From positions 1,170,001 through 1,202,000 of the forward strand of contig NC_000918.1 in NCBI RefSeq assembly GCF_000008625.1: a DNA stretch of 32,000 bases. The letters run 5' to 3'. Under the pieces are notes generated by a model, which had not been told where the DNA came from, searched no databases, and saw nothing but the letters and a program-made list of their open reading frames with translations. How positions within the stretch are numbered: the first letter of the stretch is position 1; every line of letters begins with the position of its first letter. Source of the DNA: Aquifex aeolicus VF5. Lineage in GTDB: Bacteria; Aquificota; Aquificia; Aquificales; Aquificaceae. The position numbers and the translations under genes were made by a program. This document shows, piece after piece, positions 1,185 through 27,185 of this stretch.

Positions 1185-2066
1185 ATGAAGAAATCTCCCA
1201 AAATCAGTTTAATACTTGAAGCTTTCCAGAACCTTGAAAAGGCTTACGTTGACCTCAAAAAGAACCTTGAAATTCCAAAGGAGGAATTTGTTAAGAATAA
1301 ACTTGTTCAGGACAGGGTGAGGATAGACTTTAACCTCGCCTTTGAGAGTACAATGAGGGTGTGCAGGCACCTCTCCGCTGTTTACGGCGTAAAAACCTCT
1401 TCAAGGGACTGCCTTCCTAAAATTGCCGAGCATATAGGTCTTCCCTTTGCGGACAGGTTAAAGAAATTTTCCGAATTTTACTTCCGCTACAGGGACTTAA
1501 AAGACACCGTTTCTCCAGAAGAACTCTATGACTTTTTAAAGGAAAACCTCGTCCTTTTTAAAGAGTTTGCGAGGGGTGTTGTAGAGTACATAAAGAAGAC
1601 CACGGGCAATTACCTGTTGATAGACTTTGACCTTCTGAACGAAAAAGCGAAGTTCATAAAGGATTCCGTGAAGAAGATAGACTTCGTCCTGTCTCAGGGA
1701 GAAGAAGAGTTCAAGAAAACGCCTATGTACTACGACAGGGTGAAGTACTTCTATCAGGTGGCTTACGACTCGCTGTTTGACATATGCAAGCACCTCGCTC
1801 CAAAGTTCGGCATAAAGAAGTTCGGGGATGATTGCCTAACGAAAATGGTGGAAAAGGGGGTAATCCCTCCTGAATATTACGAAACTGTTCTGAAAATGAC
1901 GCTCCTTAAGAACAAGCTCATAAGCACGTGGGAGGTGAGTCCGGAAGAGCTTTACAGAAGTCTTAAAGAGCTAAATGACAAGTTCATCCCCGTTCTCAGG
2001 GAAATATCAAAGAGTTTAAAATTATTACTTGAGAAAAAAGCAAAGGAAGTGGGGAAAGAAGCATGA
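1185..2066 (+). CDS. Tandem-duplicated DUF86/HEPN-like (YutE/HepT-like) protein with a degenerate catalytic motif
   Basis: The 293-aa ORF has two internally homologous halves: DRVRIDFNLAFESTMRVCRHLSAVYGVKTSSRDCLPKIAEHIGLP versus DRVKYFYQVAYDSLFDICKHLAPKFGIKKFGDDCLTKMVEKGVIP. Each half ends in VSPEELY. The position of the HEPN RNxxxH motif reads FRYRDLKD in one half and LKNKLIST in the other. Confidence 0.55.
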   Translation: MKKSPKISLILEAFQNLEKAYVDLKKNLEIPKEEFVKNKLVQDRVRIDFNLAFESTMRVCRHLSAVYGVKTSSRDCLPKIAEHIGLPFADRLKKFSEFYFRYRDLKDTVSPEELYDFLKENLVLFKEFARGVVEYIKKTTGNYLLIDFDLLNEKAKFIKDSVKKIDFVLSQGEEEFKKTPMYYDRVKYFYQVAYDSLFDICKHLAPKFGIKKFGDDCLTKMVEKGVIPPEYYETVLKMTLLKNKLISTWEVSPEELYRSLKELNDKFIPVLREISKSLKLLLEKKAKEVGKEA

Positions 2067-2557
2067 GGGTTTTAAAGATACTGCTTTTTATAATCTTCTT
2101 CTCTTTCGGTGTTGAGGCTGTTCCCTTTGAGAAAATCTCATTCCTGAACTTAAAAGAGGATCTGGAGGAGGCTAAAAAGGAAGGGAAGTACTTATTCATA
2201 ATGTTTGAACAGGAAGAATGCCCTTTCTGCGATAAGATGAAGAGGGTTACCTTTCAGGATCCCCGCGTTAGAGAGTACTTCACGAAACACTTCTACATGG
2301 TGAGGATAGATATAAAAGGTTCTAATCCCGTTGTGTACTTTGACGGGACGGAAATGACTGAAAAGGAACTCGCCCACAAGTTCAGGGTTAGGGCAACGCC
2401 TCACTTTGTTTTCTTTGACCACGAAGGTAAAAAGATACTCTCTATCCCCGGATACATACCGCCCGAGGAATTTCTACTAATCGGTAAGTACGTAGCCGAA
2501 GGTTACTACAAAAAGATGAGTTACTTTAAGTTTAAGAGAATGATAAAAAAGGATTAA
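2063..2557 (+). CDS. Secreted thioredoxin-fold protein (SoxW/thioredoxin-related, CxxC)
   Basis: There is an N-terminal signal-like segment (MRVLKILLFIIFFSFGVEA). A CPFC redox motif sits in FEQEECPFCDKMK, followed by RATPHFVFFD, which resembles the cis-Pro loop region of thioredoxin-like proteins. An ATGA overlap joins it to the upstream gene. Confidence 0.7.
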   Translation: MRVLKILLFIIFFSFGVEAVPFEKISFLNLKEDLEEAKKEGKYLFIMFEQEECPFCDKMKRVTFQDPRVREYFTKHFYMVRIDIKGSNPVVYFDGTEMTEKELAHKFRVRATPHFVFFDHEGKKILSIPGYIPPEEFLLIGKYVAEGYYKKMSYFKFKRMIKKD

Positions 2558-3765
2558 TGTGGTTTTTAATCCTCCTCGTAGGTTTCAGTTTTTCCCTCCA
2601 GATATCCCTCAAGGATGCCTTAGAACTCGCCCTTAAGAACAACAGAACCTTGAAAAAACTTGAAAGAGAACTCAGTTCTGCGGTCTACAGGGAAAAGTTG
2701 AGCCTGTGGGAGAGGTTTTCCCCCGAAACGGACGTAAGGGTTTCAAGGGACAGGCTAGAGCTTGTGGCGAGGGTTTTGCTCCTTGAGTTCGGAAGGAGAA
2801 CGAAAAACATAAAAGCGGAGGAACACAGGAAGAAGATAGCGGAGTTAACCCTTCTGGAGTTCAAAAATAGGCTCAAAATTGAAGTCACGGATCTTTACAT
2901 AAAACTCCTACTTTACGACGTTATGGCACAGGAGAAAAGGGAGTTTATGGCGGTTGCCTTCGTGAGGTTTGACAGGGAAAGGGAGAAAATGAAACTCGGA
3001 CTTTCGGATAGGGTAAAGGTCTCGGAACTTGAAAAAGTTTACAGAAAGTACAGAAAAGAACTCTTTGAAGTTCAGAGGAAGTACAACGAAACCCTTTACA
3101 GGTTAAAACGCTACCTCGGTCTGAAAATGGAAGAAGATCTGGAAATAAAGCCTCTTAAATTCAGGATACCCTTCGAAAAAAACTTTAAGGAGAAAGTTTT
3201 ACTGGATAAAGTGAAAAATAATTACAAATTAAAGATAAAAAATCAGGAAATCGCTTACTACAGGGAACTGGAGAAGGGTGAAAGAACGCTTTTCAAACCC
3301 GAGGTGGTGCTGGAGGGAAGGTTCGGAAGGGATTTTGATGAAAAGGATTACTATACTAAGTTCAACACGTACATTAACATTCCCATTCTGGATCCGAGAC
3401 CTGAACTGAGGAGAAAAACTTTAAAAGAAAAGAGGCTGGCTTTGATGAGGGAGTACAGAGAACTGGAAGAGGAAGTAAAAGAGAGGGTTTACACCTTTCC
3501 CTATATATGGGACGAAATAAGGGAAAACTACAAGTACGCGAAAACTTACTTCAACTGGGCTGAGAATAACCTCGAGAAGAAGCGTTCGGAGTACGAACTT
3601 CAACTCGCCTTTGATCTCGGGTACGCAATGGCACACTACACGGAAGCGGAAAGAAAACTCTTAGAAGTGAACAGAAGGGCACTCCTCTTTCTGATGGAGG
3701 TTTACCATACCGTGGGAGAAGATCCGGTGAAGGCTCTGGGAAATAAACATCCGTTCCTCGAGTAA
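2557..3765 (+). CDS. TolC-family outer membrane efflux protein (OEP)
   Basis: The N-terminus has a signal segment followed by ISLKDALELALKNNRTLKKLERELSSA, a typical OEP start. The rest is long and helix-rich. A TAATG overlap joins it to the upstream thioredoxin-like gene. Confidence 0.75.
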   Translation: MWFLILLVGFSFSLQISLKDALELALKNNRTLKKLERELSSAVYREKLSLWERFSPETDVRVSRDRLELVARVLLLEFGRRTKNIKAEEHRKKIAELTLLEFKNRLKIEVTDLYIKLLLYDVMAQEKREFMAVAFVRFDREREKMKLGLSDRVKVSELEKVYRKYRKELFEVQRKYNETLYRLKRYLGLKMEEDLEIKPLKFRIPFEKNFKEKVLLDKVKNNYKLKIKNQEIAYYRELEKGERTLFKPEVVLEGRFGRDFDEKDYYTKFNTYINIPILDPRPELRRKTLKEKRLALMREYRELEEEVKERVYTFPYIWDEIRENYKYAKTYFNWAENNLEKKRSEYELQLAFDLGYAMAHYTEAERKLLEVNRRALLFLMEVYHTVGEDPVKALGNKHPFLE

Positions 3766-4422: not shown

Positions 4423-7400
4423 TTAGGATTCCTTCTTCTCTTCGGAGGATGCGGAAACCTCAGCTTTCTGTTTTTCGTACTCTTCCTTAGGAATAAAGAC
4501 GAACTCCCCGTCTTTGTAGTCCACAACTACCGTCATTCCGTCCTTGATTTCTCCTCTTATTATCTTGTCCGCGAGGGGTGTTTCCACGTACTTCTGAATT
4601 GTTCTCTTTAGAGGTCTCGCTCCGAATGCCGGGTCGTATCCTCTCCTTACGAGTTCTTTCTTTGCCTCTTCCGTGAGTTCTATCTTTATGTTCCTTTCAG
4701 CGAGTCTCTTGTTCACGTTTGCGATAAGGAGGTCTATTATCTTGGAGAGTTCTCTCATGGTGAGCGGTTTGAACACGATTATCTCGTCTATTCTGTTGAT
4801 GAATTCAGGTCTCATGTAGAGCTTGAGCTCTTCAAGAACCTTTTCCTTAGCCTTTTCGAATTCCCTATTGAGAGTTTCCTCATCCGCATCCACGGGAATG
4901 TTCAGGAGATACTGAGAACCTATGTTTGAGGTCATTATTATCACGGTGTTTCTAAAGTCTACCGTCCTTCCGTGGGAGTCCGTGAGTCTTCCATCGTCAA
5001 GCACTTGCAAGAAGAGGTCAAGAACTCTGGGGTGTGCCTTTTCTATTTCGTCAAGGAGTATTACTGAGTATGGTTTTCTCCTTACCGCTTCGGTGAGTTT
5101 TCCGCCCTCCTCGTATCCTACGTATCCCGGAGGTGCACCGATTAGCTTTGCCACGGAGTGCTCTTCCTTGAACTCGGACATATCAAGCCTGATTAGAGCG
5201 TCTTCATCTCCGAAGAGGAGTTCCGCAAGTGCCTTTGAGAGTTCCGTTTTACCTACACCCGTTGGTCCGAGGAACAGAAAGCTCGCTATGGGTCTCTTGG
5301 GATCCTTTAGTCCTGCTCTTGCCCTTCTGATTGCTTCCGCTACAGCTTTTACAGCGTGTTCTTGGTCAACGACTCTCTTGTGAAGTTCGTCTTCAAGTTT
5401 GAGAAGTTTTTGCATTTCCTCTTCTTTTAGTCTGGATACGGGTATTCCGGTCCACTCCGAAACTACTTCCGCAACGTCGTCCCACGTGACCACGAGTTCC
5501 TTGGACTTTTCCTGTTCTAACTTCTTGAGTTCCTTTTCTAGCTTAGCCTTTTCTATCTTGAGCTCAGCTTCCTTCTCATAATCGCCCTTTTCCGCGGCTT
5601 CCTTTATCTTCTCGTCAAGTTCCTCAATCTTCTTCTTGAGCTCGGCGATCTTAGCTTCTACTCCTCCTACCTTGCCGAGGAGTTCCTGCTTTTCCTTCTC
5701 AAGTTTAGCTTTCTCTATCTTGAGCTGTGCTTCTTTTTCGTAGTCGCCTTTTAGGTTAGCCTCTATTATCTGCTCTTCCAGAGCTTTTATCTTCCTCTCT
5801 ATTTCCTGTATTTCGGGGGGAGTTCCTATAACTTTTAGCTTTTTCCTTGCGGCAGCCTGGTCGAGGGCGTCTATCGCCTTGTCGGGAAGTCTCCTGAAGG
5901 TTACGTACCTCTTCGTGAGCTTTACAGCCGCTTCTATTGCTTCGTCGGAAATCTTTACCTTGTGGAACTGCTCAAGTCTTGGTCTCAGACCTTTTAGGAT
6001 TTCTATCGTCTGCTCTTCGGTTGGCTCGTCCACGAATACGGGCTGGAACCTTCTTTCAAGTGCCGGGTCCTTTTCTATGTACTTTCTGTACTCGTCAACG
6101 GTTGTAGCTCCGATTACCCTGATTTCTCCTCTAGCGAGTGCGGGCTTCATTATGTTTGCCGCGTCAACTGCACCTTCCGCAGCTCCCGCTCCCACTACGG
6201 TGTGTATTTCGTCTATGAAGAGTATTACGTTTCCTTTTTCCTTTACCTCGTCAAGGAGAGCTTTTAGTCTCTCTTCAAACTCACCCCTGTACTTAGAACC
6301 TGCGAGGAGTGATGCCATATCTATGGACCATATTTCCTTGTCCTGTAATTCTGGGGGGACTTCCTTGTTCACTATCCTTTGGGCGAGTCCTTCCACTATT
6401 GCGGTCTTACCGACTCCGGGGTCTCCCACGAGTACGGGGTTGTTTTTAGTTCTCCTTAGGAGTATTTCTATAACTTGGTTTATTTCCCTTTCCCTTCCTA
6501 TTACAGGGTCCAGTTTACCCTGCCTTGCGAGTTCGTTTAAGTTAACGCCGAAGCGCTCAAGGGGAGACTTTTCTTCTTCTTTGAGTTCTTGAGTGACGTC
6601 CTTCTTCATCTCTTTTTCACCTCCTAAAACTTGATTTATTAACTTACCACCTATGGTATCTTTTGCCTCAATTAAAGCCGCGGAAATGTGAGAAGGTTGA
6701 ACCTGAGCCTCTCCCTCGGATACAGCCTTGTCCTGAGCCTTTTCAAGAACCTGAGTCAGGTACTGACTGTAATCAAAGGTGGGTTTCTTTCCGAAAACCT
6801 TTTCCGCTACCTTGTCTATTATCCTGTCCGGAGAAATTCCAAGTTCCTTTACTTGTTCAATTAAGGGAGACTTTTCAAGGGCTTTTCTTATTAGACCATC
6901 TATGGAGAGTTTATTTTCAAGGAATGCCTTTACATCCTCGGGTGCAAATACGGTGGATAAGCTCTTTTCCACCTGCTCCAGTTGTCTCCTTATACTTTGT
7001 TCCGTTGCTTCGAGTTGTCTGAGTTCAAGTTCCAGAGTTTCAGCGGTCCACCAATCTCCGTATCTCCTTGCGTACTCAAGTTCCCTGAGTATCCTCTCCT
7101 TTGCCTTCCTTATTTTGGAGAGTTCCGTCTGGACGTTTCCTATGTTGGATTTTACTTCCATTATCTGGGTTCTCAGGTTTATTAGGTTCTGGGCTTCCGC
7201 TTCTATAGCCTTTTCAAGTTGCTTGTTGAGGTTTTCAAGGTATTCGCTCACCCTCTTTAAAAACTCCTTCCTGTCTATTCCCCTTTTCTCTATATATTTA
7301 GAAAGAGGAGATTTTTCGTCGAGGAGCAGGGCTATTAGAAGGTGATCCGTGTCCACCTTAGTGTCCTTGTTTTCCCTTGCTATTTCTTTCGCCTTTTCCA

Positions 7401-7443
7401 GATACTCAAGGGATTTGGCGGAAAACAGGTTTTCGCTTATCAT
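4423..7443 (-). CDS. clpB: Chaperone disaggregase ClpB (enlarged, 1006 aa)
   Basis: There are two AAA+ modules. Walker A motifs are GDPGVGKT and GPTGVGKT. Walker B motifs are ILFIDEIH and ILLDEIEKAH. Other features are RYVTFRRLPDKAIDALDQA, a coiled-coil M-domain and GARPLKRTIQ. Confidence 0.97.
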   Translation of the reverse strand: MISENLFSAKSLEYLEKAKEIARENKDTKVDTDHLLIALLLDEKSPLSKYIEKRGIDRKEFLKRVSEYLENLNKQLEKAIEAEAQNLINLRTQIMEVKSNIGNVQTELSKIRKAKERILRELEYARRYGDWWTAETLELELRQLEATEQSIRRQLEQVEKSLSTVFAPEDVKAFLENKLSIDGLIRKALEKSPLIEQVKELGISPDRIIDKVAEKVFGKKPTFDYSQYLTQVLEKAQDKAVSEGEAQVQPSHISAALIEAKDTIGGKLINQVLGGEKEMKKDVTQELKEEEKSPLERFGVNLNELARQGKLDPVIGREREINQVIEILLRRTKNNPVLVGDPGVGKTAIVEGLAQRIVNKEVPPELQDKEIWSIDMASLLAGSKYRGEFEERLKALLDEVKEKGNVILFIDEIHTVVGAGAAEGAVDAANIMKPALARGEIRVIGATTVDEYRKYIEKDPALERRFQPVFVDEPTEEQTIEILKGLRPRLEQFHKVKISDEAIEAAVKLTKRYVTFRRLPDKAIDALDQAAARKKLKVIGTPPEIQEIERKIKALEEQIIEANLKGDYEKEAQLKIEKAKLEKEKQELLGKVGGVEAKIAELKKKIEELDEKIKEAAEKGDYEKEAELKIEKAKLEKELKKLEQEKSKELVVTWDDVAEVVSEWTGIPVSRLKEEEMQKLLKLEDELHKRVVDQEHAVKAVAEAIRRARAGLKDPKRPIASFLFLGPTGVGKTELSKALAELLFGDEDALIRLDMSEFKEEHSVAKLIGAPPGYVGYEEGGKLTEAVRRKPYSVILLDEIEKAHPRVLDLFLQVLDDGRLTDSHGRTVDFRNTVIIMTSNIGSQYLLNIPVDADEETLNREFEKAKEKVLEELKLYMRPEFINRIDEIIVFKPLTMRELSKIIDLLIANVNKRLAERNIKIELTEEAKKELVRRGYDPAFGARPLKRTIQKYVETPLADKIIRGEIKDGMTVVVDYKDGEFVFIPKEEYEKQKAEVSASSEEKKES

Positions 7444-9921: not shown

Positions 9922-10711
9922 AAGGATAAGGGAAATAAAGGAAAAGGAACAGGAAGAATTAGTAAGGAAAATATCGGAACTACTAGCGCTCGAAAGAGAA
10001 CTCGAAAGGAAACTTGAAGAACTCCTAAGAGAATACGACAGAAAAAGCCAGAGTGTAAATACCTTGAACGAAATCTTCAAGTTAAAGGCCATAACTAGAA
10101 AAATAGAGGAAACCGTAGACTACTTGGAGGAATTGAACGTCAAAAAAGAGGAGCTAAAAGAAAAGTATCTGGAGTTAAAAGGTGAGATAAAGTCAATAGA
10201 GATACTGGAGGAGAGGAAAAAGAGGGAAAAAATCAAAAAGGAAATAGCGGTAAGCCTTCAAGAACTTGGATTTATGCATCTCGTAAAGAAGATAATTCCC
10301 GTTTTTTTTATGTTTTTCTCCTTCCTCTTTTCTGAAAGTGCCACACAAAAAGCATTAAAAGATAGCATTAACTTAAAAGAGGATTACAAGGTTCTCCTGA
10401 AGTTGATAGAGGAAAAGCTAAAAAAACTGGAAGAGGAGAGGAAAAAGCTCGAAGCCCTGCAAAAAACACCCTTGACGGAGGAGGAAAAGAAGAAACTGGA
10501 AAAGCTGATTAAATCCGTGGAGAAAGCCCCGGCGGACGAGATAGCTCCCGCTATAGAAAACCTTCCGCCCAAGTTAGCGGCGGAGATACTTCTGAGGATT
10601 AAGGAGAGGAAAGCAGGTCAGATACTCGCAAATATGAACCCTCAGAAGGCTTCAGAAATTATGAAGTACATACTTGAAAGAAATCCCAGCTTCAACGCTC
10701 AGGTAGATTGA
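9914..10711 (+). CDS. Coiled-coil (FliJ-like?) N-terminal part, one TM segment, and a C-terminal MgtE_N-type domain (YlxF/FlbB-like flagellar accessory protein)
   Basis: The C-terminus IAPAIENLPPKLAAEILLRIKERKAGQILANMNPQKASEIMKYIL matches the MgtE intracellular N-domain repeat. A hydrophobic segment KKIIPVFFMFFSFLFS lies mid-protein. The N-terminal 120 aa are charged coiled coil. Confidence 0.5.
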   Translation: MFKRIREIKEKEQEELVRKISELLALERELERKLEELLREYDRKSQSVNTLNEIFKLKAITRKIEETVDYLEELNVKKEELKEKYLELKGEIKSIEILEERKKREKIKKEIAVSLQELGFMHLVKKIIPVFFMFFSFLFSESATQKALKDSINLKEDYKVLLKLIEEKLKKLEEERKKLEALQKTPLTEEEKKKLEKLIKSVEKAPADEIAPAIENLPPKLAAEILLRIKERKAGQILANMNPQKASEIMKYILERNPSFNAQVD

Positions 10712-11771
10712 AGTACTTTAAGATAGCCCTGTAAATCGCGTAAGCGAACTTTTTCTGGAAGTGTCTGCTCCTTAACTTTCTAGCTTCGTAAGGGTTCGTT
10801 ATAAATCCGGCTTCTATTAAGACTGAGGGTATTCCAGGCGTCTTGAGGACTGCAAAGTTTGCCCTCTTTATCCCCTTAAAGCGGACGCTCCTTCTCATAG
10901 TTCTCTTTATCTCCCTTGCTAGTATCTTTGCAAAGTCAACGCTGTCCTCCAAAGTTACCCTGAAAGCGAGGTCTGAGATGATCAGCCTCAATTGTCTGTT
11001 CCTCGGATCTCCTCCCCTTATTATCTGCCCGGCGTAACTCAGGTCACTCAGGAGCTTGCTCTTCTTCTGTTTTGCACCTCTGTAAGAAAGGGCGAATATC
11101 TGAGTGCCCCTCGCGTAGGGTCTTCTCTTAGGTGCCGCGTCCGCGTGAATGCTTACAAAGAGGTGTGCCCTGTTCCTTATAGCTATCTGTGCCCTTTTCT
11201 CTAAAGGAACGAAGTAATCCCCCTTCCTCGTCATAATTACTCTAAACCTTCCGTCCCTTTTGAGGTAGTAAGCGAGATACTTCGCTATTTGAAAGTTTAC
11301 CCACTTCTCTTTTATTCCCCTCCAGCCTATGGCTCCGGGATCCTTCCCGCCGTGTCCCGCATCCACGACAACCGTAAACTTTCTCGGCTTTACTCTTATC
11401 CTTTTTTCCTTTATAAGATCAACAACGAGTCTGTCTGGATTCTTCAAGGTAAAGGCCCTTACTGAGTACTGTTTTTCCGGTTTTAAAACCACCCTCCTTC
11501 CCCACGGGTGCTTACCGAGTTTGTAAGAAATGCCCTTCGGCAGGCGAACTCTCTTTATCCTCACGTCCTTACCGAGAAGGTCTATTACTATCCTGTATGG
11601 TCTCTTTAAGACGAATATCCTGTACTTCGTCTCCTTTGATAGGTCAAAAACTACCCTTACCTTGTCTTTATGAATTCCGTGCCTTATTTTGACGAGATTC
11701 AGAGGGAAGGTAAAGCTTACAAAAAGTAAAAACAGTAAGACCTTAAAACTGGTCGAACTCCTTAGGAGCAC
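10692..11771 (-). CDS. N-acetylmuramoyl-L-alanine amidase (AMIN domain(s) + Amidase_3)
   Basis: A signal segment comes first. AMIN-like stretches are KDKVRVVFDL...YRIVIDLLG and PDRLVVDL. The catalytic motifs VVVDAGHGGKDPGAIG and FVSIHADA follow. A GTG start overlaps the upstream gene by 29 nt. Confidence 0.9.
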   Translation of the reverse strand: MLLRSSTSFKVLLFLLFVSFTFPLNLVKIRHGIHKDKVRVVFDLSKETKYRIFVLKRPYRIVIDLLGKDVRIKRVRLPKGISYKLGKHPWGRRVVLKPEKQYSVRAFTLKNPDRLVVDLIKEKRIRVKPRKFTVVVDAGHGGKDPGAIGWRGIKEKWVNFQIAKYLAYYLKRDGRFRVIMTRKGDYFVPLEKRAQIAIRNRAHLFVSIHADAAPKRRPYARGTQIFALSYRGAKQKKSKLLSDLSYAGQIIRGGDPRNRQLRLIISDLAFRVTLEDSVDFAKILAREIKRTMRRSVRFKGIKRANFAVLKTPGIPSVLIEAGFITNPYEARKLRSRHFQKKFAYAIYRAILKYFNLPER

Positions 11772-13401
11772 TGACTTCCTCCTCCACCTCTTCCTTCTTA
11801 GTAGCCCACGGAGCCAAAGGAAACTTTATCATCACGGGGTTGGGAATGTCTGGCTGGTAGAGTATCATCGTCCCCTTCTTTAGCATTATAGCCCTCTGTC
11901 TAAAGTTTCCGGTCAGGAACTCGTACTCTTTGCTGAGGACTTCACTGCTGTCAAGCCTTCCCGTTACCTTTACCGCTGCGTTAGCTACTATCCTCTTCTC
12001 AATTTCACTTGCAGTTTGCTGTGCTCCTATTAGTATAACTCCTAAACTCCTTCCTCTTTCCGCGATGTCGAGCAAGATTTCTTTTATGGGACTCCACTTG
12101 TCCTTAGGTGCGTATTTATTTAATTCGTCCAGAACGACGAAAATTTTAGGGTAGGGATTTCCCGTCTCTTCTTTTTCTCTGAATATCTTCTTGAGTATTG
12201 AACCAACAACGAACATTTTGGCTATACCGTGGAGATCCGATATGTCTATTACGTTGAGCTGGTGGGAGCGCCAATCTATGTGCCTGGATTTATTTCCGTG
12301 AACGAGGTGCTTGCAGTGGGAAGCGGCGTGGTGAAACCTCCTCAAAAAGGCGTATGCGGTTGCGGTTGCAGCCGTTCCGAACCACTCCCTGTAGCGGTCG
12401 GGATCTCTCTTCGTTTCCCTGTCTTCTATAACCTCGTGCAGGAGCTTTAAAAGATCCCCGAGAGAGTTTATCTCCTGACCGTTTTCGTCAAGTAGCACGT
12501 CTCCCGGGCTTTCCTTTGCAAGTTGCTGGAGTTTTTCTGAAACCCTGTCTATTACGTAGTGGAGTGAAGTCGCCCCTTCGTCTCCTTCCGCAAAGAGAAA
12601 CCTCAGTAATCCTTCCTGTGCAAAGTCCTTCATGGACCACTTGTAGGGAAATACCCCTTCCAGTCTCTCCCCCGAGGATGGGATCTCGCTCCACTCCTGT
12701 TCGGGAGGTGCCCAGAATGCAACGTTCTTGAAAGGTTCTGGCGGAAGACCCAGTTTTTCAAAAGCCTCTCTGTGTTCCTTAGTAAACCTCTTGTTCTTCT
12801 TGTCTATCCACAAAAGATCTTTTCCTTTTACGTTGAATATTATCCCGTGAATCTTTGTCCTGTCGTCCGCCTTCTGGAATATAGAGTATAGAAGGAATAG
12901 GGCGTAAGAAGTTTTTGTAGCAACTCCGGACATACCAGAAATTGATATGTGAGCCCCTTCCCTTCCGTTTATAAAGTCGTAATTGAGGTAAACAACCTCT
13001 CCGTTTCTCGTAAGCCCTGCGGGAATCTTCCTTTTCATATTGTCGTAGTAGAGGGCTTTTTCAAAGTCTATTCCCTCGGCTTTAAAGACGTAATCACCGG
13101 GTGTAGGAGGTATGAACACTTCTGGTTCTATACGGGTGACGGAAACCCTAGCCATGTAAGCCAAGTTTGCAGGAACGACCCCGCTATTTACAAGCTGGGC
13201 GTCATATACAAGTTCAACACCTTCCAGGTACTTTATAACTTCCTGAACGATCCCGTAGAACTTTATCTCCTCATTAGTTCCGTCTATTTTTGAATTAACT
13301 ACTACGACGTCGTCAAGTTGAAGGAATTTTCCCTTTTCTACCCCTACCCAGAACTCAAGGGGGTTTGAAGGCTTTGTTCCTAAAACTATTCCCACTTTCA
13401 T
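11743..13401 (-). CDS. HerA/FtsK-superfamily ATPase (DUF87-like) with an N-terminal barrel and a deviant Walker A
   Basis: The N-terminus is HAS-barrel-like (VGIVLG...FLQLDDVVVV...FYGIVQEV). The P-loop region is HISISGMSGVATKTS. Walker B is IFVVLDELNKYAP. The distal RGRSLGVILIGAQQ is also present. Confidence 0.7.
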   Translation of the reverse strand: MKVGIVLGTKPSNPLEFWVGVEKGKFLQLDDVVVVNSKIDGTNEEIKFYGIVQEVIKYLEGVELVYDAQLVNSGVVPANLAYMARVSVTRIEPEVFIPPTPGDYVFKAEGIDFEKALYYDNMKRKIPAGLTRNGEVVYLNYDFINGREGAHISISGMSGVATKTSYALFLLYSIFQKADDRTKIHGIIFNVKGKDLLWIDKKNKRFTKEHREAFEKLGLPPEPFKNVAFWAPPEQEWSEIPSSGERLEGVFPYKWSMKDFAQEGLLRFLFAEGDEGATSLHYVIDRVSEKLQQLAKESPGDVLLDENGQEINSLGDLLKLLHEVIEDRETKRDPDRYREWFGTAATATAYAFLRRFHHAASHCKHLVHGNKSRHIDWRSHQLNVIDISDLHGIAKMFVVGSILKKIFREKEETGNPYPKIFVVLDELNKYAPKDKWSPIKEILLDIAERGRSLGVILIGAQQTASEIEKRIVANAAVKVTGRLDSSEVLSKEYEFLTGNFRQRAIMLKKGTMILYQPDIPNPVMIKFPLAPWATKKEEVEEEVSAPKEFDQF

Positions 13402-13450: not shown

Positions 13451-16099
13451 CTAATTCAGTATTATTTTTGTGTTTAAAACTTTATTTTCCTCCCCGTCGG
13501 GTGGTGCCCAATGCGCATCCGGAGGCGTTTTTTCCACGGGAGACCACGGGTGTCCTTTCGGGATTATTATTTCCGAATCTTTTACAGTGTTAAACCTTGA
13601 ATAACCGCCGTGGAAGTTTACATCAACGAAAAAAGTGCAGTTTTTCACCACATTTCTCGAAGAAGCCCACTGAATTACAAAGTGCCTCACACCTTTTACG
13701 TAACACTTTACAAACACTATTCTGTGGGACTTGTAAATCCTGACGTATCCGTTTCCCCCTTTCCCTTTATTCCAGCTCCCGAAAGCTTTAAAGTTTTTAA
13801 CTTTAACACCGTAGCTGTTTTCAAGGCTAAGAGGATGACTACCTGCCATAAGCACCTTTACGTTTATAAGGGAACTCTCCGATACCCACCTGAGCCTAAT
13901 TCCATCAACTTTATACCCGGGAAACAAATTCTCGTAAACGTACTCAACTTCGCGCGGGTCGTGGTCAGGGACTTCCTGATAAAGTGTCAGGTTTTCTATC
14001 CTGACGTTCTTTACAAACTCAGGAGCGTAAACCACGCTGTTAGGAGGGTAATCTATCTCCACGGGTTCTGACAGAATAATCCTATTTCTGCGAACTTCCT
14101 CAACTCTGTAAATTCCCTGTCTCAAAAAAGGCTTTTCCTTTTTCCAGACCCTTGAGCCTATACTCTTCAAAAACTCCTCCGTATTAGGAGCACCTATCCA
14201 GACGTAATTGAGTTTTCCTTTTACTTCTCTGTCCAGAAGTAATTCACTTTCACCTTTTCTCACACCCTTTAACGTATAACCTAGCTTTTTTCCTTTACTC
14301 CCGGAAACCTCTATAACGCTTTTGTCTTCGCCCTTTATCTTTGAAATTATCAGAACCTTTCCTTTTCCTTTCAGCGTGATATTTGAAGTATTTATCTTTA
14401 CGGGTCTGTAAACGCAGTAAGTTCCCTGTTCTATGTAAATTTCATTTACTCCGCGTTTTAGTGCCATTTCAATTTTACTTTCCAGTCCTTCCTTGCAATC
14501 TTTTATTTCTGCAGAAAAGGCAAGTCCGGGCAAGGGCAGCGGACCGAACCTCGGGAGCTTGAAAACACCCACGTACAGCCCTACGAAGTATACGTAAAGA
14601 GTTATGTAAAGAACTATTAATCCGTACCTCAGCATAGTCCTGAGAGTTTTGAAACTGTGAATTTTTGCCTGTATTTCCTGTTTTGCGTGTTTAGCCCAAC
14701 TCTGTTTTGCTAAGTTTGATGAAGCGTAAATCTTCACTACTGAACCTACCCACTTGTCGTAAACTTGGAGAAGTAGGTGTAGTATGTGAGGTGTGAGGCG
14801 TGAAATAAAAAACAACCACGTCAATTGAAGCGTTCTTATCCATATTACCCATACCGCGTAAAAGACCCAGTAAAAGGGAGATATAAAGAGGGAGAGAAGG
14901 GTTGCACCTGTGGGCCCAACTAAACTCGTCCACATGGAAATCCTTTGATCCACTATAGCCCACCATATGAACCAGCTTCCTATTTTCTTCGGACCTAGCT
15001 TAATAGCCCTCCAGTTATTCCTGAGCATATTCCCGTACCACCTGAACATGAGGGATATAGAAATCTTAAAGAAGTTTCCGCTCCTTTCCTCCACAGACCA
15101 TGTGAGTGCGTCCGGAGCATAAAGCATATCCCAGCCGTTTTTCAGAAGGTAAAACCACGTACTTTTGTCGTCTCCCATCAAGAACCTGAACTTACCGAAC
15201 AGGTAATGCTCAAGTTTATCTGCTTCAACAAACCTTATGAATTCTTCATTCAATACTACATGAGCCCTGAATACGGAAAACCTCCCTGTTAAAGTCAGAA
15301 CTTTCCTGTAAAGGCTGTGGGACATCATCATCATGTGTCTTCTTGCGAACTTTAACCTGTACCAGAGCAGTAAGAGGAAGTTCTTTCCGATGTAGTGAAC
15401 CTCTTCATCGGTCGTTACCGCCGCTATTTTCGGAGAAAGTTTAAAGAGCGGAAGCGTTTTTTTGAGGACGTCCTTTCCCAAAACAGTATCCCCGTCCATG
15501 AACACTATAAGGTCATCCTTGTAATCCCTGTGGAAGTAAAGAGGGTGCGTAAAGTGTCTGGAAATGGCACGGAGGGTGTGTCCCATAGCTACCCTTTTAC
15601 CGAGCTCCTGATACAGAAATATGAGCTTTATCTTTTCCTTGTAGTCGTAAGCTCTAACTACCTGCTCAATGAAGTCCGCTTCCTTTTTAGACCCAACTGC
15701 TACGAATACGTAAACCTCAGATGGAATTTTGTAGCATTCCTGAACAAGGGACATGAAAACGATTTCCGAAACCCTTGGACTCTCTTTATAGGAGGGAATC
15801 ATGAAGTATAGCCTTCTGGGATAGGGATTTTTAACCTTCTTTAATATTCTCCTGTACTTGGGATACACGTAGAAGTTGTATATAAGGGCGTTTAGAGCGT
15901 TAATTGCAAACCACGTGTACCTCCATACACCTATCGCTGCTATGGCTAAAAAACCGTGAAACTTCAGGTCCCACGCTCTTCCCGGAAGTAAGGCGAGTAT
16001 TATGAAGGAAATCCCAAGCCAGAAGAACAGAAATAAAAGAAATTGGGGCCAAGATTTTGGAAAATCTTCTCTGGAGGAATAAGCGAGATTTGGTTTCAT
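13451..16099 (-). CDS. Alg8-like membrane family-2 glycosyltransferase (polysaccharide synthase) fused to a C-terminal periplasmic right-handed beta-helix domain
   Basis: N-terminal TM helices come first. GT2 motifs are LIVFMDGDTVLG, LTLTGRFSVFRA, FRFLMGDDKSTWF and LMFRWYGNMLRNN (the xxRW motif), plus VDQRISMWTS. More TM helices follow, then 356 aa of repeats such as NITLKGKG, VRIENLTLY, NVKVLMAG, VKVKNFKAFG, IVFVKCYVKG and VVKNCTFFVD. Confidence 0.75.
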   Translation of the reverse strand: MKPNLAYSSREDFPKSWPQFLLFLFFWLGISFIILALLPGRAWDLKFHGFLAIAAIGVWRYTWFAINALNALIYNFYVYPKYRRILKKVKNPYPRRLYFMIPSYKESPRVSEIVFMSLVQECYKIPSEVYVFVAVGSKKEADFIEQVVRAYDYKEKIKLIFLYQELGKRVAMGHTLRAISRHFTHPLYFHRDYKDDLIVFMDGDTVLGKDVLKKTLPLFKLSPKIAAVTTDEEVHYIGKNFLLLLWYRLKFARRHMMMMSHSLYRKVLTLTGRFSVFRAHVVLNEEFIRFVEADKLEHYLFGKFRFLMGDDKSTWFYLLKNGWDMLYAPDALTWSVEERSGNFFKISISLMFRWYGNMLRNNWRAIKLGPKKIGSWFIWWAIVDQRISMWTSLVGPTGATLLSLFISPFYWVFYAVWVIWIRTLQLTWLFFISRLTPHILHLLLQVYDKWVGSVVKIYASSNLAKQSWAKHAKQEIQAKIHSFKTLRTMLRYGLIVLYITLYVYFVGLYVGVFKLPRFGPLPLPGLAFSAEIKDCKEGLESKIEMALKRGVNEIYIEQGTYCVYRPVKINTSNITLKGKGKVLIISKIKGEDKSVIEVSGSKGKKLGYTLKGVRKGESELLLDREVKGKLNYVWIGAPNTEEFLKSIGSRVWKKEKPFLRQGIYRVEEVRRNRIILSEPVEIDYPPNSVVYAPEFVKNVRIENLTLYQEVPDHDPREVEYVYENLFPGYKVDGIRLRWVSESSLINVKVLMAGSHPLSLENSYGVKVKNFKAFGSWNKGKGGNGYVRIYKSHRIVFVKCYVKGVRHFVIQWASSRNVVKNCTFFVDVNFHGGYSRFNTVKDSEIIIPKGHPWSPVEKTPPDAHWAPPDGEENKVLNTKIILN

Positions 16100-17541
16100 C
16101 AGAAGAACCTCTTTATATATCTGATAATATAGGGCTCGTAATGCTTCGGTGTTATCTCCACCTCCGCTTTTATCCCGTGGTGTAGCTCCTGAGGATACTC
16201 GAAAAGTTCTATCTTCACGGGAACGTCCGGAAGGGCGTACTCTTCACTTTCCGATATCATACTCTCGTCTCCCAGAGCCTTCTTACCTATGGCAATTACT
16301 TTGCCTTCCACGGTCTTTTCTATACTCGGGAAGTAGACACGAGCTTTATCCCCTACGTTTATGTAAAGTACATCCCTCTTTTTAAACCTCGCAATTACGT
16401 AGCCCTTTTTCTCTAAACTCTCTATCACCATAACGGGCATACCCGGTGTGAGAATCTGTCCTTCCAAGTAGTAAACCGAAAGCACTATCCCGTCAAAGGG
16501 AGCCCTGTAAATCTCAAAGTTGTCCTCTTCATCCCCTCCTCCGCCACCCGCGTAAAAGCTGCCCAGCTCCTTAAGGAGTGTGTATAAGAAAGCCAGATAC
16601 CTCTCGTCGGCACTCTTTTCTTTTTCCAACTCCCTTAAGGACAGGAGAAGCTCTTTATACTCATTTTCTTTATCTTCGTACACACTCCTGCTTATGTACC
16701 CGAGCTCAAAGGCGCTTTTTGCTTTTTCAAGTTCTACTTTTAAACTTCTTAGGCGGAATCTAGTGGCTTTTATCCTTTCATCAAGCAGGGCTATCTTATT
16801 CTTAGTCTTCTCAATTTCCCTTAGTATGGCAGCCCTGTCTCTCAGTATCCTAACACCAACACCCCCGTATCCGTCCTTTTCATCCTCTATCCTTGAGGTC
16901 TTAAAAAGTACTTGATTTTTCCTTACTTCGTCCCCTTCCTTCACGTAAACCTTTTCGAGGATTGCCTCCCAAGGCGTGATTAGAGAAACTACGTTTCCCG
17001 AATAAAACGCATCAACACTGTAAGCTTTCGGCGTAGCCCAGAATACGAGGTAAAGCCCGAAAGCAAGGGCTAAGGCTATTAAAAGGTATACAAGTATCGC
17101 TATAAATAACTTCCTGTTTAGCCTTCTTTCCTCTTCTTCCGTTAAAGGTTCCTCTATAGGCGGTGGGACCATAAGGCGTTCAGCGGTACTCAGGAATTCA
17201 CCGAATTCTTCCAACCTCCCCTCTATGTAAGCCTGTACATACTTCTTTAAAATCTCTTTGGCTTCATCGGGCAGTTCCTTAAACTCAAAACCAGCCTGAT
17301 CTTCACTGCTCCACTTGTTTATAGCTTCAGCATTTATGGCAACGTTGAAACTTGCAAAGGGAAGTATGAACTTTACTTTGTAAACTTTGTCTTTTTCAAA
17401 TACATCCTCCTTACTTTTCTCTATCCTGAAACCTTCGTAGGACCAGTCGAGGACTTTGTACTCCTTTCCGTCAATTGAGACTTTTGCAGGTATTTTTAAT
17501 CTGTAAGTTTTTCGGAGGTGGGCGTCCTCAAATTCAGCCAT
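16099..17541 (-). CDS. Alg44-like protein: N-terminal PilZ domain, one TM helix, periplasmic HlyD-type membrane-fusion domain
   Basis: PilZ motifs are RKTYR (RxxxR) and DWSYEG (DxSxxG). The TM helix is LFIAILVYLLIALALAFGLYLVFW. A coiled-coil hairpin and HlyD-type barrel-sandwich motifs are present (YRAPFDGIVLSV, VGDKARVYF...VEGKVIAIG). The ATGA overlap at 16099 joins it to the synthase gene. Confidence 0.75.
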   Translation of the reverse strand: MAEFEDAHLRKTYRLKIPAKVSIDGKEYKVLDWSYEGFRIEKSKEDVFEKDKVYKVKFILPFASFNVAINAEAINKWSSEDQAGFEFKELPDEAKEILKKYVQAYIEGRLEEFGEFLSTAERLMVPPPIEEPLTEEEERRLNRKLFIAILVYLLIALALAFGLYLVFWATPKAYSVDAFYSGNVVSLITPWEAILEKVYVKEGDEVRKNQVLFKTSRIEDEKDGYGGVGVRILRDRAAILREIEKTKNKIALLDERIKATRFRLRSLKVELEKAKSAFELGYISRSVYEDKENEYKELLLSLRELEKEKSADERYLAFLYTLLKELGSFYAGGGGGDEEDNFEIYRAPFDGIVLSVYYLEGQILTPGMPVMVIESLEKKGYVIARFKKRDVLYINVGDKARVYFPSIEKTVEGKVIAIGKKALGDESMISESEEYALPDVPVKIELFEYPQELHHGIKAEVEITPKHYEPYIIRYIKRFF

Positions 17542-22070: not shown

Positions 22071-23654
<1,584 letters not shown>

Positions 23655-23711
23655 ATAACGGAGACAAAAGCTCCCCACAAAAGGGGAGCTCATCCCTGTC
23701 TAGTGCATATA

Positions 23712-23744
23712 AAAGGAGGAGAGGCTCACCCTCTACTCAGTTGC
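23712..23744 (+). repeat. 3' arm of the 16S rRNA processing helix
   Basis: AAAGGAGGAGAGGCTCACCCTCTACTCAGTTGC is the reverse complement of 21973..22005. Confidence 0.85.
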
Positions 23745-23759
23745 TCCCCTTGCAAAGCA

Positions 23760-23833
23760 GGGCCTCTAGCTCAGCTGGTTAGAGCGTGCCCCTGATAAGG
23801 GCAAGGTCCCAGGTTCGAGTCCTGGGAGGCCCA
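23760..23833 (+). tRNA. tRNA-Ile (anticodon GAT), CCA not encoded
   Basis: The sequence is GGGCCTCTAGCTCAGCTGGTTAGAGCGTGCCCCTGATAAGGGCAAGGTCCCAGGTTCGAGTCCTGGGAGGCCCA. The anticodon loop is CTGATAA. Confidence 0.95.
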
Positions 23834-23849
23834 TATTAGGGGCACCTTC

Positions 23850-23922
23850 GGGGGTGTAGCTCAGCTGGGAGAGCGCCTGCTTTGCAAGCAGGAGGTCGTG
23901 GGTTCGAGTCCCACCACCTCCA
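23850..23922 (+). tRNA. tRNA-Ala (anticodon TGC), CCA not encoded
   Basis: The sequence is GGGGGTGTAGCTCAGCTGGGAGAGCGCCTGCTTTGCAAGCAGGAGGTCGTGGGTTCGAGTCCCACCACCTCCA. The G3:U70 identity pair is present and the anticodon loop is TTTGCAA. Confidence 0.95.
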
Positions 23923-23933
23923 CTTGGCTCCTT

Positions 23934-23966
23934 GTCAACAGAATAAAGCCTGTACCTCCTCCCGCC

Positions 23967-23977
<11 letters not shown>
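23934..23977 (+). repeat. 5' arm of the 23S rRNA processing helix
   Basis: GTCAACAGAATAAAGCCTGTACCTCCTCCCGCCGGTGTGCAAGT pairs with 26915..26958 over 44 positions. The only deviations are two G-U wobbles. Confidence 0.85.
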
Positions 23978-26914
<2,937 letters not shown>

Positions 26915-26925
<11 letters not shown>

Positions 26926-26958
26926 GGTGGGAGGAGGTACAGGCTTTATTCTGTTGAC
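26915..26958 (+). repeat. 3' arm of the 23S rRNA processing helix
   Basis: ACTTGCACGCCGGTGGGAGGAGGTACAGGCTTTATTCTGTTGAC is the reverse complement of 23934..23977. Confidence 0.85.
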
Positions 26959-26963
26959 GGATT

Positions 26964-27085
26964 GCCCCTGGTGGCCATAGCGGGGGGGAAACACCCGGTC
27001 CCATTCCGAACCCGGCAGTTAAGCCCCCCAGCGCCGATGATACTGTGCCGGCAGCGGCACGGGAAAGTAGGTCGCTGCCAGGGGC
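26964..27085 (+). rRNA. rrf: 5S ribosomal RNA
   Basis: The sequence runs GCCCCTGGTGGCCATAGCGGGGGGGAAACACCCGGTCCCATTCCGAACCCGGCAGTTAAGCC...GGGAAAGTAGGTCGCTGCCAGGGGC. The terminal helix GCCCCTGG/CCAGGGGC closes it. Confidence 0.93.
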
Positions 27086-27108
27086 TTTTAATTTAATTTA
27101 TTTAGAAA

Positions 27109-27185
27109 GGGCCCGTAGCTCAGTTGGATAGAGCAGGGGATTTCTAATCCCCAGGTCGGGGGTTCGAGTCCCTCCGGGCCCACCA
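27109..27185 (+). tRNA. tRNA-Arg (anticodon TCT), 3' CCA encoded
   Basis: The sequence is GGGCCCGTAGCTCAGTTGGATAGAGCAGGGGATTTCTAATCCCCAGGTCGGGGGTTCGAGTCCCTCCGGGCCCACCA. The anticodon loop is TTTCTAA. Confidence 0.93.

Follow-up and report, generated by a model that had tools for sequence, protein, structure and literature searches.

Is the synthesis of an exopolysaccharide in Aquifex aeolicus VF5 placed under the control of cyclic diguanosine monophosphate (c-di-GMP)? The question is raised by one open reading frame (ORF) in a 32,000-nucleotide stretch of the chromosome (NC_000918.1, forward-strand positions 1,170,001 to 1,202,000, assembly GCF_000008625.1), which we refer to as the window and whose coordinates are used throughout. 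The ORF lies on the minus strand at 16099..17541 and encodes a 480-amino-acid protein, the translation of which opens MAEFEDAHLRKTYRLKIPAKVSIDGKEYKVLDWSYEGFRIE. A 100% identical NCBI entry bears the name 'HlyD family secretion protein', whereas UniRef uses 'PilZ domain-containing protein'. The start codon is credible, with a Shine-Dalgarno sequence (AAGGAGG) 7 nt 5' to it and residues E3, F4 and E5 kept in homologues. A first-pass annotation had noted two PilZ motifs at the N-terminus of this membrane-fusion protein, and predicted that c-di-GMP switches on the synthesis or export of a polymer. We find that residues 10-107 are a PilZ domain in which neither c-di-GMP-binding motif is damaged, that a large family shares these motifs, and that the gene is translationally coupled to a gene for a processive-type glycosyltransferase family 2 (GT2) synthase, a GT2 gene being adjacent in every context examined. 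Taken together, the analyses make it likely that the protein is an Alg44-type, c-di-GMP-gated co-polymerase or adaptor, in which a single transmembrane helix joins a PilZ domain on the cytoplasmic side to a HlyD-type domain in the periplasm.

The N-terminal region is a PilZ domain with both motifs intact

The two motifs had been reported as RKTYR at residues 10-14 and DWSYEG at residues 32-37, and direct translation agrees exactly on both, at the nucleotide positions given in Table 1; the second also has the refined form [D/N]hSxxG, with W33 as the hydrophobic residue (definition in bioRxiv 10.1101/814665). In 200,000 composition-preserving shuffles of the protein, the pattern RxxxR-x12-35-[DN]xSxxG is found anywhere in 0.6%, and inside the first 60 residues in 0.03%. 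The same regular expression also matches one non-coding frame of the window and an amidase gene (10692-11771), where RPYAR...DLSYAG at 11028-11123 on the minus strand is a chance match within an Amidase_3/AMIN protein that has no PilZ domain. The regular expression alone is not diagnostic of PilZ, and the domain-level match is therefore the decisive evidence.

Pfam PF07238 (PilZ) matches residues 10-103 over model positions 7-101/102, with an E value of 1e-6 and a score of 29.4 bits, the gathering cut-off being 22.5. A word-indexed search for homologues gave three proteins (81% and 44% identical) in which both motifs are invariant, and a profile of these three was run against 1.84 billion cluster representatives. 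This recovered 3681 proteins at E<=1e-3, a number that falls to 428 when the limit is set at E<=1e-10 and to 60 when it is set at E<=1e-30. The best 150 are nearly all full-length PilZ plus adaptor proteins of 450-550 amino acids. Conservation was counted in a MAFFT alignment of 152 sequences of the family. R10 is kept in 137 of these, R14 in 139 and P18 in 134; position 32 is D in 122 and N in a further 17, and W33, S34 and G37 are present in 140, 144 and 141 respectively. The full canonical pattern (R, R, D/N, S, G) occurs in 126/152, and the remaining 26 are mostly N-terminally truncated fragments, with about six members that are truly degenerate. The motifs are lost by a few members that keep the synthase (see below), and their retention in about 90% therefore reflects selection.

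Single-sequence phmmer searches of the PDB with the full protein or with residues 1-131 found no PilZ structure. A profile of 42 N-terminal domains, however, has the PilZ domain of Pseudomonas aeruginosa Alg44 as its best PDB match (4XRN, 4RT0 and 4RT1, E 2.5e-10) with both motifs aligned, followed by weaker matches to PA4608/MapZ (E 6e-3) and BcsA (E 0.015). An AlphaFold2 model of residues 1-125, built on the alignment behind this profile, has a mean predicted local distance difference test score (pLDDT) of 83.7 and a predicted template modelling score of 0.75, with core pLDDT above 90 and disorder confined to residues 1-8 and the linker; strands are modelled at 20-23, 26-33, 37-41, 53-61, 66-78 and 82-87, and a helix at 92-107. 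When compared with the PDB using Foldseek, the first nine matches are Alg44 PilZ structures with c-di-GMP (E about 1e-6, target template modelling score 0.80, root mean square deviation about 2 A), and the next are MapZ, MotI, BcsA (8e-4), PA0012, YcgR, MrkH and PlzD. The top 35 are PilZ domains throughout, as is every confident match. The PilZ beta-barrel, on which the proposal had been made to depend beforehand, is thus what is modelled, and its nearest structure is c-di-GMP-bound. The spacing of the motifs, which had been described as canonical, is less straightforward. The gap between R14 and D32 is 18 residues, which is constant in the family but 4-5 residues shorter than in Alg44 and PA4608, both of which need insertions between the motifs to align with the family profile, and it lies at the short end of the canonical range. 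From the intact motifs, the profile matches and the modelled fold, we infer that the domain binds c-di-GMP.

The PilZ domain is carried by a HlyD-type adaptor

Pfam matches to the remainder of the protein are HlyD_D23 (5.7e-9), HlyD_3 (2.1e-8) and Biotin_lipoyl_2, which bear out its annotation as a membrane-fusion protein and, with the PilZ domain and one transmembrane helix, make it a PilZ-transmembrane-HlyD adaptor. With a single transmembrane helix and the basic RRLNRK ahead of it, the positive-inside rule would make the N-terminus and the PilZ domain cytoplasmic, and residues 169-480 periplasmic. The helical hairpin region varies in length within the family, being 122-155 amino acids in long members versus 12-21 in Alg44-sized ones. 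Between aligned positions 215 and 345 there are 130 residues in the Aquifex protein, compared with 12-21 in P0079, P0117 and P0118, which are Alg44-sized and serve as proxies for Alg44.

The adaptor gene is coupled to a GT2 synthase gene

The adaptor TGA overlaps the ATG of the gene that follows it (TGATG junction), which encodes an 882-amino-acid GT2 protein, GT882 (Table 1). GT882 has the processive-GT2 motifs DGD (202-204), GDDKS (309-313) and FRW (352-354), and acidic residues lie 15-16 positions ahead of RW; in Alg8, E322 stands 17 positions before R339-W340 (PMC4436075). A literature search for essential residues of Alg8 turned up none. No NCBIfam model matches GT882, and Pfam finds no PilZ domain in it.

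Genomic context was compared at 13 distinct loci, comprising eleven family members, the window and its close relative. A GT2 gene (Pfam Glyco_tranf_2_3) directly adjoins the adaptor gene in 13/13 of these, and an ABC, MFS or RND transporter gene is next to it in 0/13. Flavobacterium adaptors at L001-L004, which had been retrieved by unspecific patterns, were left out. Seven contexts have a long synthase of 882-916 amino acids, whose identity to GT882 (37-81%) extends from end to end and takes in the C-terminal periplasmic domain; shorter synthases of 516-535 amino acids occur with other family members. The module recurs in the Aquificota (Aquifex, Hydrogenothermus) and in other metagenomic lineages.

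The C-terminal domain of GT882 (residues 555-880) has sub-threshold Pfam matches only, to Beta_helix and pectate-lyase-like models, and a profile match to a putative pectin lyase (7CHU, E 8e-6). The motifs WNKGKGGNGY, NFHGG and WAPPDG are strongly conserved within it, and at one locus (L015) a domain of this type is encoded as a separate downstream ORF (E 1e-82). The domain probably modifies or cleaves the polymer. An AlgG-like identity was considered and rejected, as hhalign comparisons with the AlgG-like and other beta-helix proteins of loci L013 and L012 gave probabilities below 2%.

Downstream of the synthase gene, at a distance of 50 nt, is a gene for a 552-amino-acid protein (11743-13401, minus strand) in which Pfam recognises nothing except a HerA-like HAS-barrel at the N-terminus. 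The gene shares 29 nt with the amidase gene. Its synteny is limited to the closest relative (L005), and it is therefore probably outside the polysaccharide module.

A SPOR protein is encoded immediately upstream

The stop codon of an upstream gene overlaps the adaptor start by 8 nt, and this gene encodes a SPOR protein (Table 1). Homologues lie upstream of the adaptor gene at other loci, full-length in L005 and L014 and partial in L007 and L015, and the N-terminal 180 amino acids are homologous to the N-terminus of a porin at L013 that combines SPOR and Alginate_exp domains. The C-terminal region of about 415 amino acids has no match in Pfam (E<=10) or in PDB profile searches, and the SPOR protein gave negative hhalign results against the OEP protein of the window and the third genes of L006 and L011; Pfam, PDB profile and hhalign searches alike gave no OEP/TolC-type match for it. 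An AlphaFold2 model made from a two-sequence alignment has a pLDDT of 39.

An OEP gene of the window encodes a 402-amino-acid TolC-family protein (2557-3765, plus strand). It adjoins a thioredoxin-like gene and lies at a distance of 13 kb from the polysaccharide module, to which it may provide an unlinked outer-membrane partner.

Table 1. Positions and supporting evidence for features of the adaptor, the synthase and the SPOR protein.
Feature	Position in window	Strand	Evidence
RxxxR motif, R10-K-T-Y-R14, first of PilZ's c-di-GMP-binding motifs	17500..17514	-	Direct translation; aligns to Alg44 R17-R21
DxSxxG motif, D32-W-S-Y-E-G37	17431..17448	-	Direct translation; aligns to Alg44 D44-G49
PilZ domain, residues 10-107, predicted cytoplasmic; six beta-strands and C-terminal helix 92-107	17221..17514	-	Pfam, AlphaFold2, Foldseek
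Predicted cytoplasmic linker, residues 108-144, ending in basic RRLNRK before the membrane helix	17110..17220	-	Sequence; pLDDT drops beyond residue 110
Single transmembrane helix, residues 145-168	17038..17109	-	Sole hydrophobic segment, mean Kyte-Doolittle 2.9
Predicted periplasmic HlyD-type membrane-fusion part, residues 169-480	16102..17037	-	Pfam; weak PDB matches to HlyD and EmrA adaptors
Helical hairpin region, about 130 amino acids, residues 215-345	16507-16899	-	Alignment with family members
Barrel-sandwich/beta-barrel region, residues 345-427, within the periplasmic part		-	Pfam HlyD_D23, HlyD_3
GT2 synthase GT882, 882 amino acids; membrane GT2 residues ~20-518, periplasmic domain ~555-880	13451..16099	-	Pfam Glyco_tranf_2_3, 1.1e-59
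Right-handed beta-helix-like domain of GT882, about 330 amino acids, residues 555-880	13460-14437	-	Faint pectin-lyase similarity
SPOR protein, 514 amino acids; signal peptide, SPOR (peptidoglycan-binding) domain, then ~415 amino acids	17534..19078	-	Pfam SPOR 1.3e-7; NCBI start M4

The wider family belongs to alginate-like systems

Other family loci have a fuller complement of genes. Locus L013, whose cluster includes a Thermovibrio protein, has a complete alginate-type gene cluster (L013:4054-16831) in an Aquificota-related metagenome-assembled genome, with genes for an NDP-sugar dehydrogenase, a beta-helix protein, a GT2 and a 377-amino-acid, Alg44-sized PilZ adaptor, as well as for the SPOR+Alginate_exp (AlgE-like) porin, a TPR protein and a mannose-1-phosphate guanylyltransferase/isomerase (ManC). 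An 817-amino-acid protein encoded there matches the NCBIfam model 'mannuronan 5-epimerase AlgG' with an E value of 7e-46 but below the equivalog cut-off, and the dehydrogenase scores higher with UDP-glucose than with GDP-mannose dehydrogenase models. At L012, whose cluster includes a Desulfovibrio oxyclinae protein, a sugar dehydrogenase gene and a GGDEF-EAL gene are nearby. The GT2 proteins of the alginate-type loci L012 and L013 are 37-38% identical to residues 21-513 of GT882. At L017 (792-3446) an 884-amino-acid family member has the adaptor fused to an Alginate_lyase (PF05426) domain and a 517-amino-acid GT2 is next; here the PilZ motifs are degenerate, with D-N-K-N-G at the five key positions, and the GT2 is retained. 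Because of the gene content of L013, L012 and L017 and the identity of the L012 and L013 synthases, we place the wider family among alginate-like, synthase-dependent polysaccharide systems.

Searches of the ORFs on both sides of the Aquifex module gave no match to Alginate_exp, Sel1/TPR, NosD, Alginate_lyase, MBOAT or UDPG_MGDP_dh. Our best guess is that the polymer is an alginate-type polyuronate, because distant loci of the family have genes for an AlgG-like epimerase, an Alginate_exp porin, an Alginate_lyase and an NDP-sugar dehydrogenase.

Public annotation of the family systematically misses the association of PilZ and synthase, with the P0012, P0020, P0045, P0079 and P0118 clusters carrying names such as 'multidrug resistance efflux pump', 'efflux RND transporter periplasmic adaptor subunit' and 'biotin carboxyl carrier protein'.

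Comparison with Alg44, BcsA and TolC-dependent synthases

Control by c-di-GMP had been likened to that of both Alg44 and BcsA, and the two comparisons fare differently. The kinship with Alg44 holds, the Alg44 PilZ domain being the best match by both sequence profile and structure. The two proteins are laid out in the same order, with a PilZ domain at the cytoplasmic N-terminus, then one transmembrane helix, then a membrane-fusion domain in the periplasm; every residue of RxxxR and DxSxxG has its counterpart in the alignment, the helix at the C-terminal end of PilZ is kept, and a GT2 gene is adjacent. Alg44 itself requires R17, R21 and D44 both to bind c-di-GMP and for alginate to be made (PMC8461298; PMC4436075). 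There are also differences. Alg44 is 389 amino acids long compared with 480 in Aquifex, the extra length being the hairpin region; in Aquifex the adaptor gene comes first and the synthase gene second, and the locus is without the AlgK/E/G/X/L/I/J/F/D genes of the alginate operon. The Aquifex module also differs in having a synthase that carries a periplasmic beta-helix domain, and a coupled SPOR protein. Searches of solved structures gave no match to Alg8 or to full-length Alg44, and reviews consider that the activation mechanism awaits a structure of the Alg8-Alg44 complex (PMC8461298).

The likeness to BcsA is looser. In that system a canonical PilZ domain gates a processive GT2, as is proposed for the Aquifex module, and the profile and fold matches to BcsA are significant, but they are weaker than those to Alg44. 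The BcsA PilZ domain is fused to the C-terminus of the synthase, where it works by way of a salt bridge at the gating loop, whereas that of Aquifex is on the adaptor, and experiments with Alg8-Alg44 speak against the BcsA mechanism (PMC4436075). Release of a BcsA-style salt bridge is not to be assumed for the Aquifex module, because salt-bridge autoinhibition was tested for Alg8-Alg44 and was unsupported (PMC4436075).

The cyanobacterial cellulose system XcsA-XcsB-TolC and the rhizobial mixed-linkage glucan system BgsB-BgsA-TolC also pair a GT2 with a hairpin HlyD-like adaptor, and are themselves under c-di-GMP control (PMC12430437; PMC13438883); the long hairpin of the Aquifex protein resembles those of pump adaptors and of the XcsB and BgsB adaptors that work with TolC. 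In these systems, however, the c-di-GMP receptor is on the synthase (a PilZ domain in XcsA, and BgsA itself) rather than on the adaptor, and there is a TolC duct, whereas no TolC-type partner was identified for the Aquifex module by Pfam, PDB profile or hhalign searches.

A model for c-di-GMP control and its alternatives

As an Alg44-type receptor, the Aquifex adaptor would act as follows. The diguanylate cyclases of the cell would make c-di-GMP, to be bound by the arm at R10xxxR14 and by the turn at D32-W-S34-x-x-G37. With its ligand in place, the PilZ domain, probably a dimer formed through the C-terminal helix as in Alg44, would then act on the cytoplasmic face of the adjacent GT2, and this would permit polymerisation and translocation of the chain. 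The periplasmic adaptor with its long helical hairpin would conduct the chain towards an outer-membrane exit, with the synthase-fused beta-helix domain modifying or trimming it en route. A supply of the ligand is plausible, as A. aeolicus encodes c-di-GMP-turnover proteins; Aq_2027 is the founding HD-GYP sequence, and is the only protein of the GGDEF/EAL/HD-GYP complement of this organism that we find documented in the literature. The genome presumably also encodes about ten GGDEF proteins. Control would be exerted on the protein. Rfam finds no c-di-GMP riboswitch upstream of the genes or elsewhere in the window.

Several observations weigh against an Alg44-type receptor. The window has no GGDEF or EAL gene, and the Aquifex locus has no AlgK, AlgE, AlgX, AlgI, AlgL or AlgD-type gene. 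The beta1-beta2 hairpin between the two motifs is 5 residues shorter than in Alg44. R95 of Alg44, a contact for dimeric c-di-GMP that is required together with R17 for dimer binding (PMC8461298), aligns with Q82, and only 14/152 relatives have R at this position; the stoichiometry and the geometry of activation may therefore differ from those of Alg44. No NCBIfam model names either the adaptor or the synthase, and the similarities found are weak ones to the EmrA, HlyD and MdtN adaptors, all far below cut-offs. Finally, a few motif-less members of the family are still paired with a GT2, which shows that in some lineages the machine can do without the c-di-GMP layer.

Among the alternatives, the one that survives best is that the PilZ domain binds c-di-GMP but controls some other step, such as the assembly of outer-membrane or SPOR components, the activity of the beta-helix enzyme, or protein stability. 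The activation of Alg8 by Alg44 is unresolved in P. aeruginosa and differs from that of BcsA (PMC4436075), Alg44 also influences modification of the polymer and interacts with AlgK and AlgX (PMC4436075), and the Aquifex adaptor has both a long periplasmic hairpin and a gene coupled to that of the SPOR protein, all of which would suit such a role. The PilZ domain is predicted to be cytoplasmic, however, and the only conserved partner on that side of the membrane is the GT2 domain, present in all 13 contexts; moreover, the interactions and the stability of Alg44 are independent of c-di-GMP binding (PMC4436075). On balance we regard control of another step as unlikely.

Less likely again is a PilZ fold that does not bind c-di-GMP and serves as a purely structural part of the adaptor. 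Non-binding PilZ proteins do exist, and the unusually short inter-motif hairpin, the missing equivalent of R95 and the handful of truly degenerate relatives are what might be expected of one. Such proteins typically lose RxxxR or DxSxxG, however, whereas both are intact here and under strong purifying selection across the family, and PilZ domains within fusion proteins retain both their motifs and their binding (Galperin and Chou, bioRxiv 10.1101/814665).

An efflux or type I secretion adaptor, in which PilZ would regulate the export of drugs or proteins and not of a polysaccharide, is suggested by the public names of the family members, by the weak EmrA, HlyD and MdtN similarities and by the TolC-like OEP gene elsewhere in the window. 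The failure of the NCBIfam scores to approach their cut-offs and the occurrence of a GT2 synthase gene, in place of any ABC, MFS or RND transporter gene, beside the adaptor gene at all 13 loci make this very improbable. That the regular expression matched by accident where no domain exists, as in the amidase gene and the non-coding frame, is refuted by the Pfam significance, the family-wide conservation, the Alg44 profile match and the predicted fold, as well as by the rarity of the pair near the N-terminus of shuffled sequences, and we attach next to no weight to it.

The Alg44-type reading could extend further. It is conceivable, and we put it forward tentatively as a proposal that may well prove wrong, that the PilZ hairpin adaptor, the GT2-beta-helix synthase and a SPOR-anchored protein of novel fold make up a distinct, minimal c-di-GMP-gated exopolysaccharide machine that is neither alginate- nor cellulose-type.

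Other features of the window

Three further features of the window lie apart from the polysaccharide module. The ClpB ORF (4423-7443, minus strand) encodes 1006 amino acids and its first AAA module begins near residue 337, leaving roughly 140 residues more between Clp_N and AAA-1 than in what we take to be a typical ClpB. A 293-amino-acid ORF (1185-2066, plus strand) has a HepT-like RNase domain on residues 158-274 only, and its N-terminal half might be a fused antitoxin-type nucleotidyltransferase. A complete rRNA operon (22071-27182, plus strand) has genes for 16S rRNA, two spacer tRNAs, 23S rRNA and 5S rRNA and is followed by another tRNA gene; the short ORFs called there are artefacts.

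Implications

The PilZ annotation of the Aquifex protein is already public, the fusion of PilZ to HlyD is as old a finding as the PilZ domain itself (bioRxiv 10.1101/814665), and about 200 Alg44-like PilZ proteins were noted before (bioRxiv 10.1101/2020.02.11.943704); the known concept of a PilZ domain gating a synthase is unchanged. Less ordinary are the fusion of synthase and beta-helix domain, the coupled SPOR protein, the length of the hairpin in the adaptor, and the frequency with which family members are mistaken for efflux components in public annotation. Recognising the pairing of PilZ and GT2 corrects the annotation of several hundred protein clusters. If the Aquifex module is indeed a distinct machine, its product could be a polymer not identified so far, and, being hyperthermostable, it could take the place of the Alg8-Alg44 activation complex, which is unsolved, in structural work; the thermostable, translationally coupled adaptor-synthase pair is in any case an attractive target for determining the structure of a complex of this type. 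For the biology of the organism, the prediction is that exopolysaccharide synthesis in a hyperthermophilic, deep-branching bacterium would be switched by c-di-GMP through an Alg44-like receptor.

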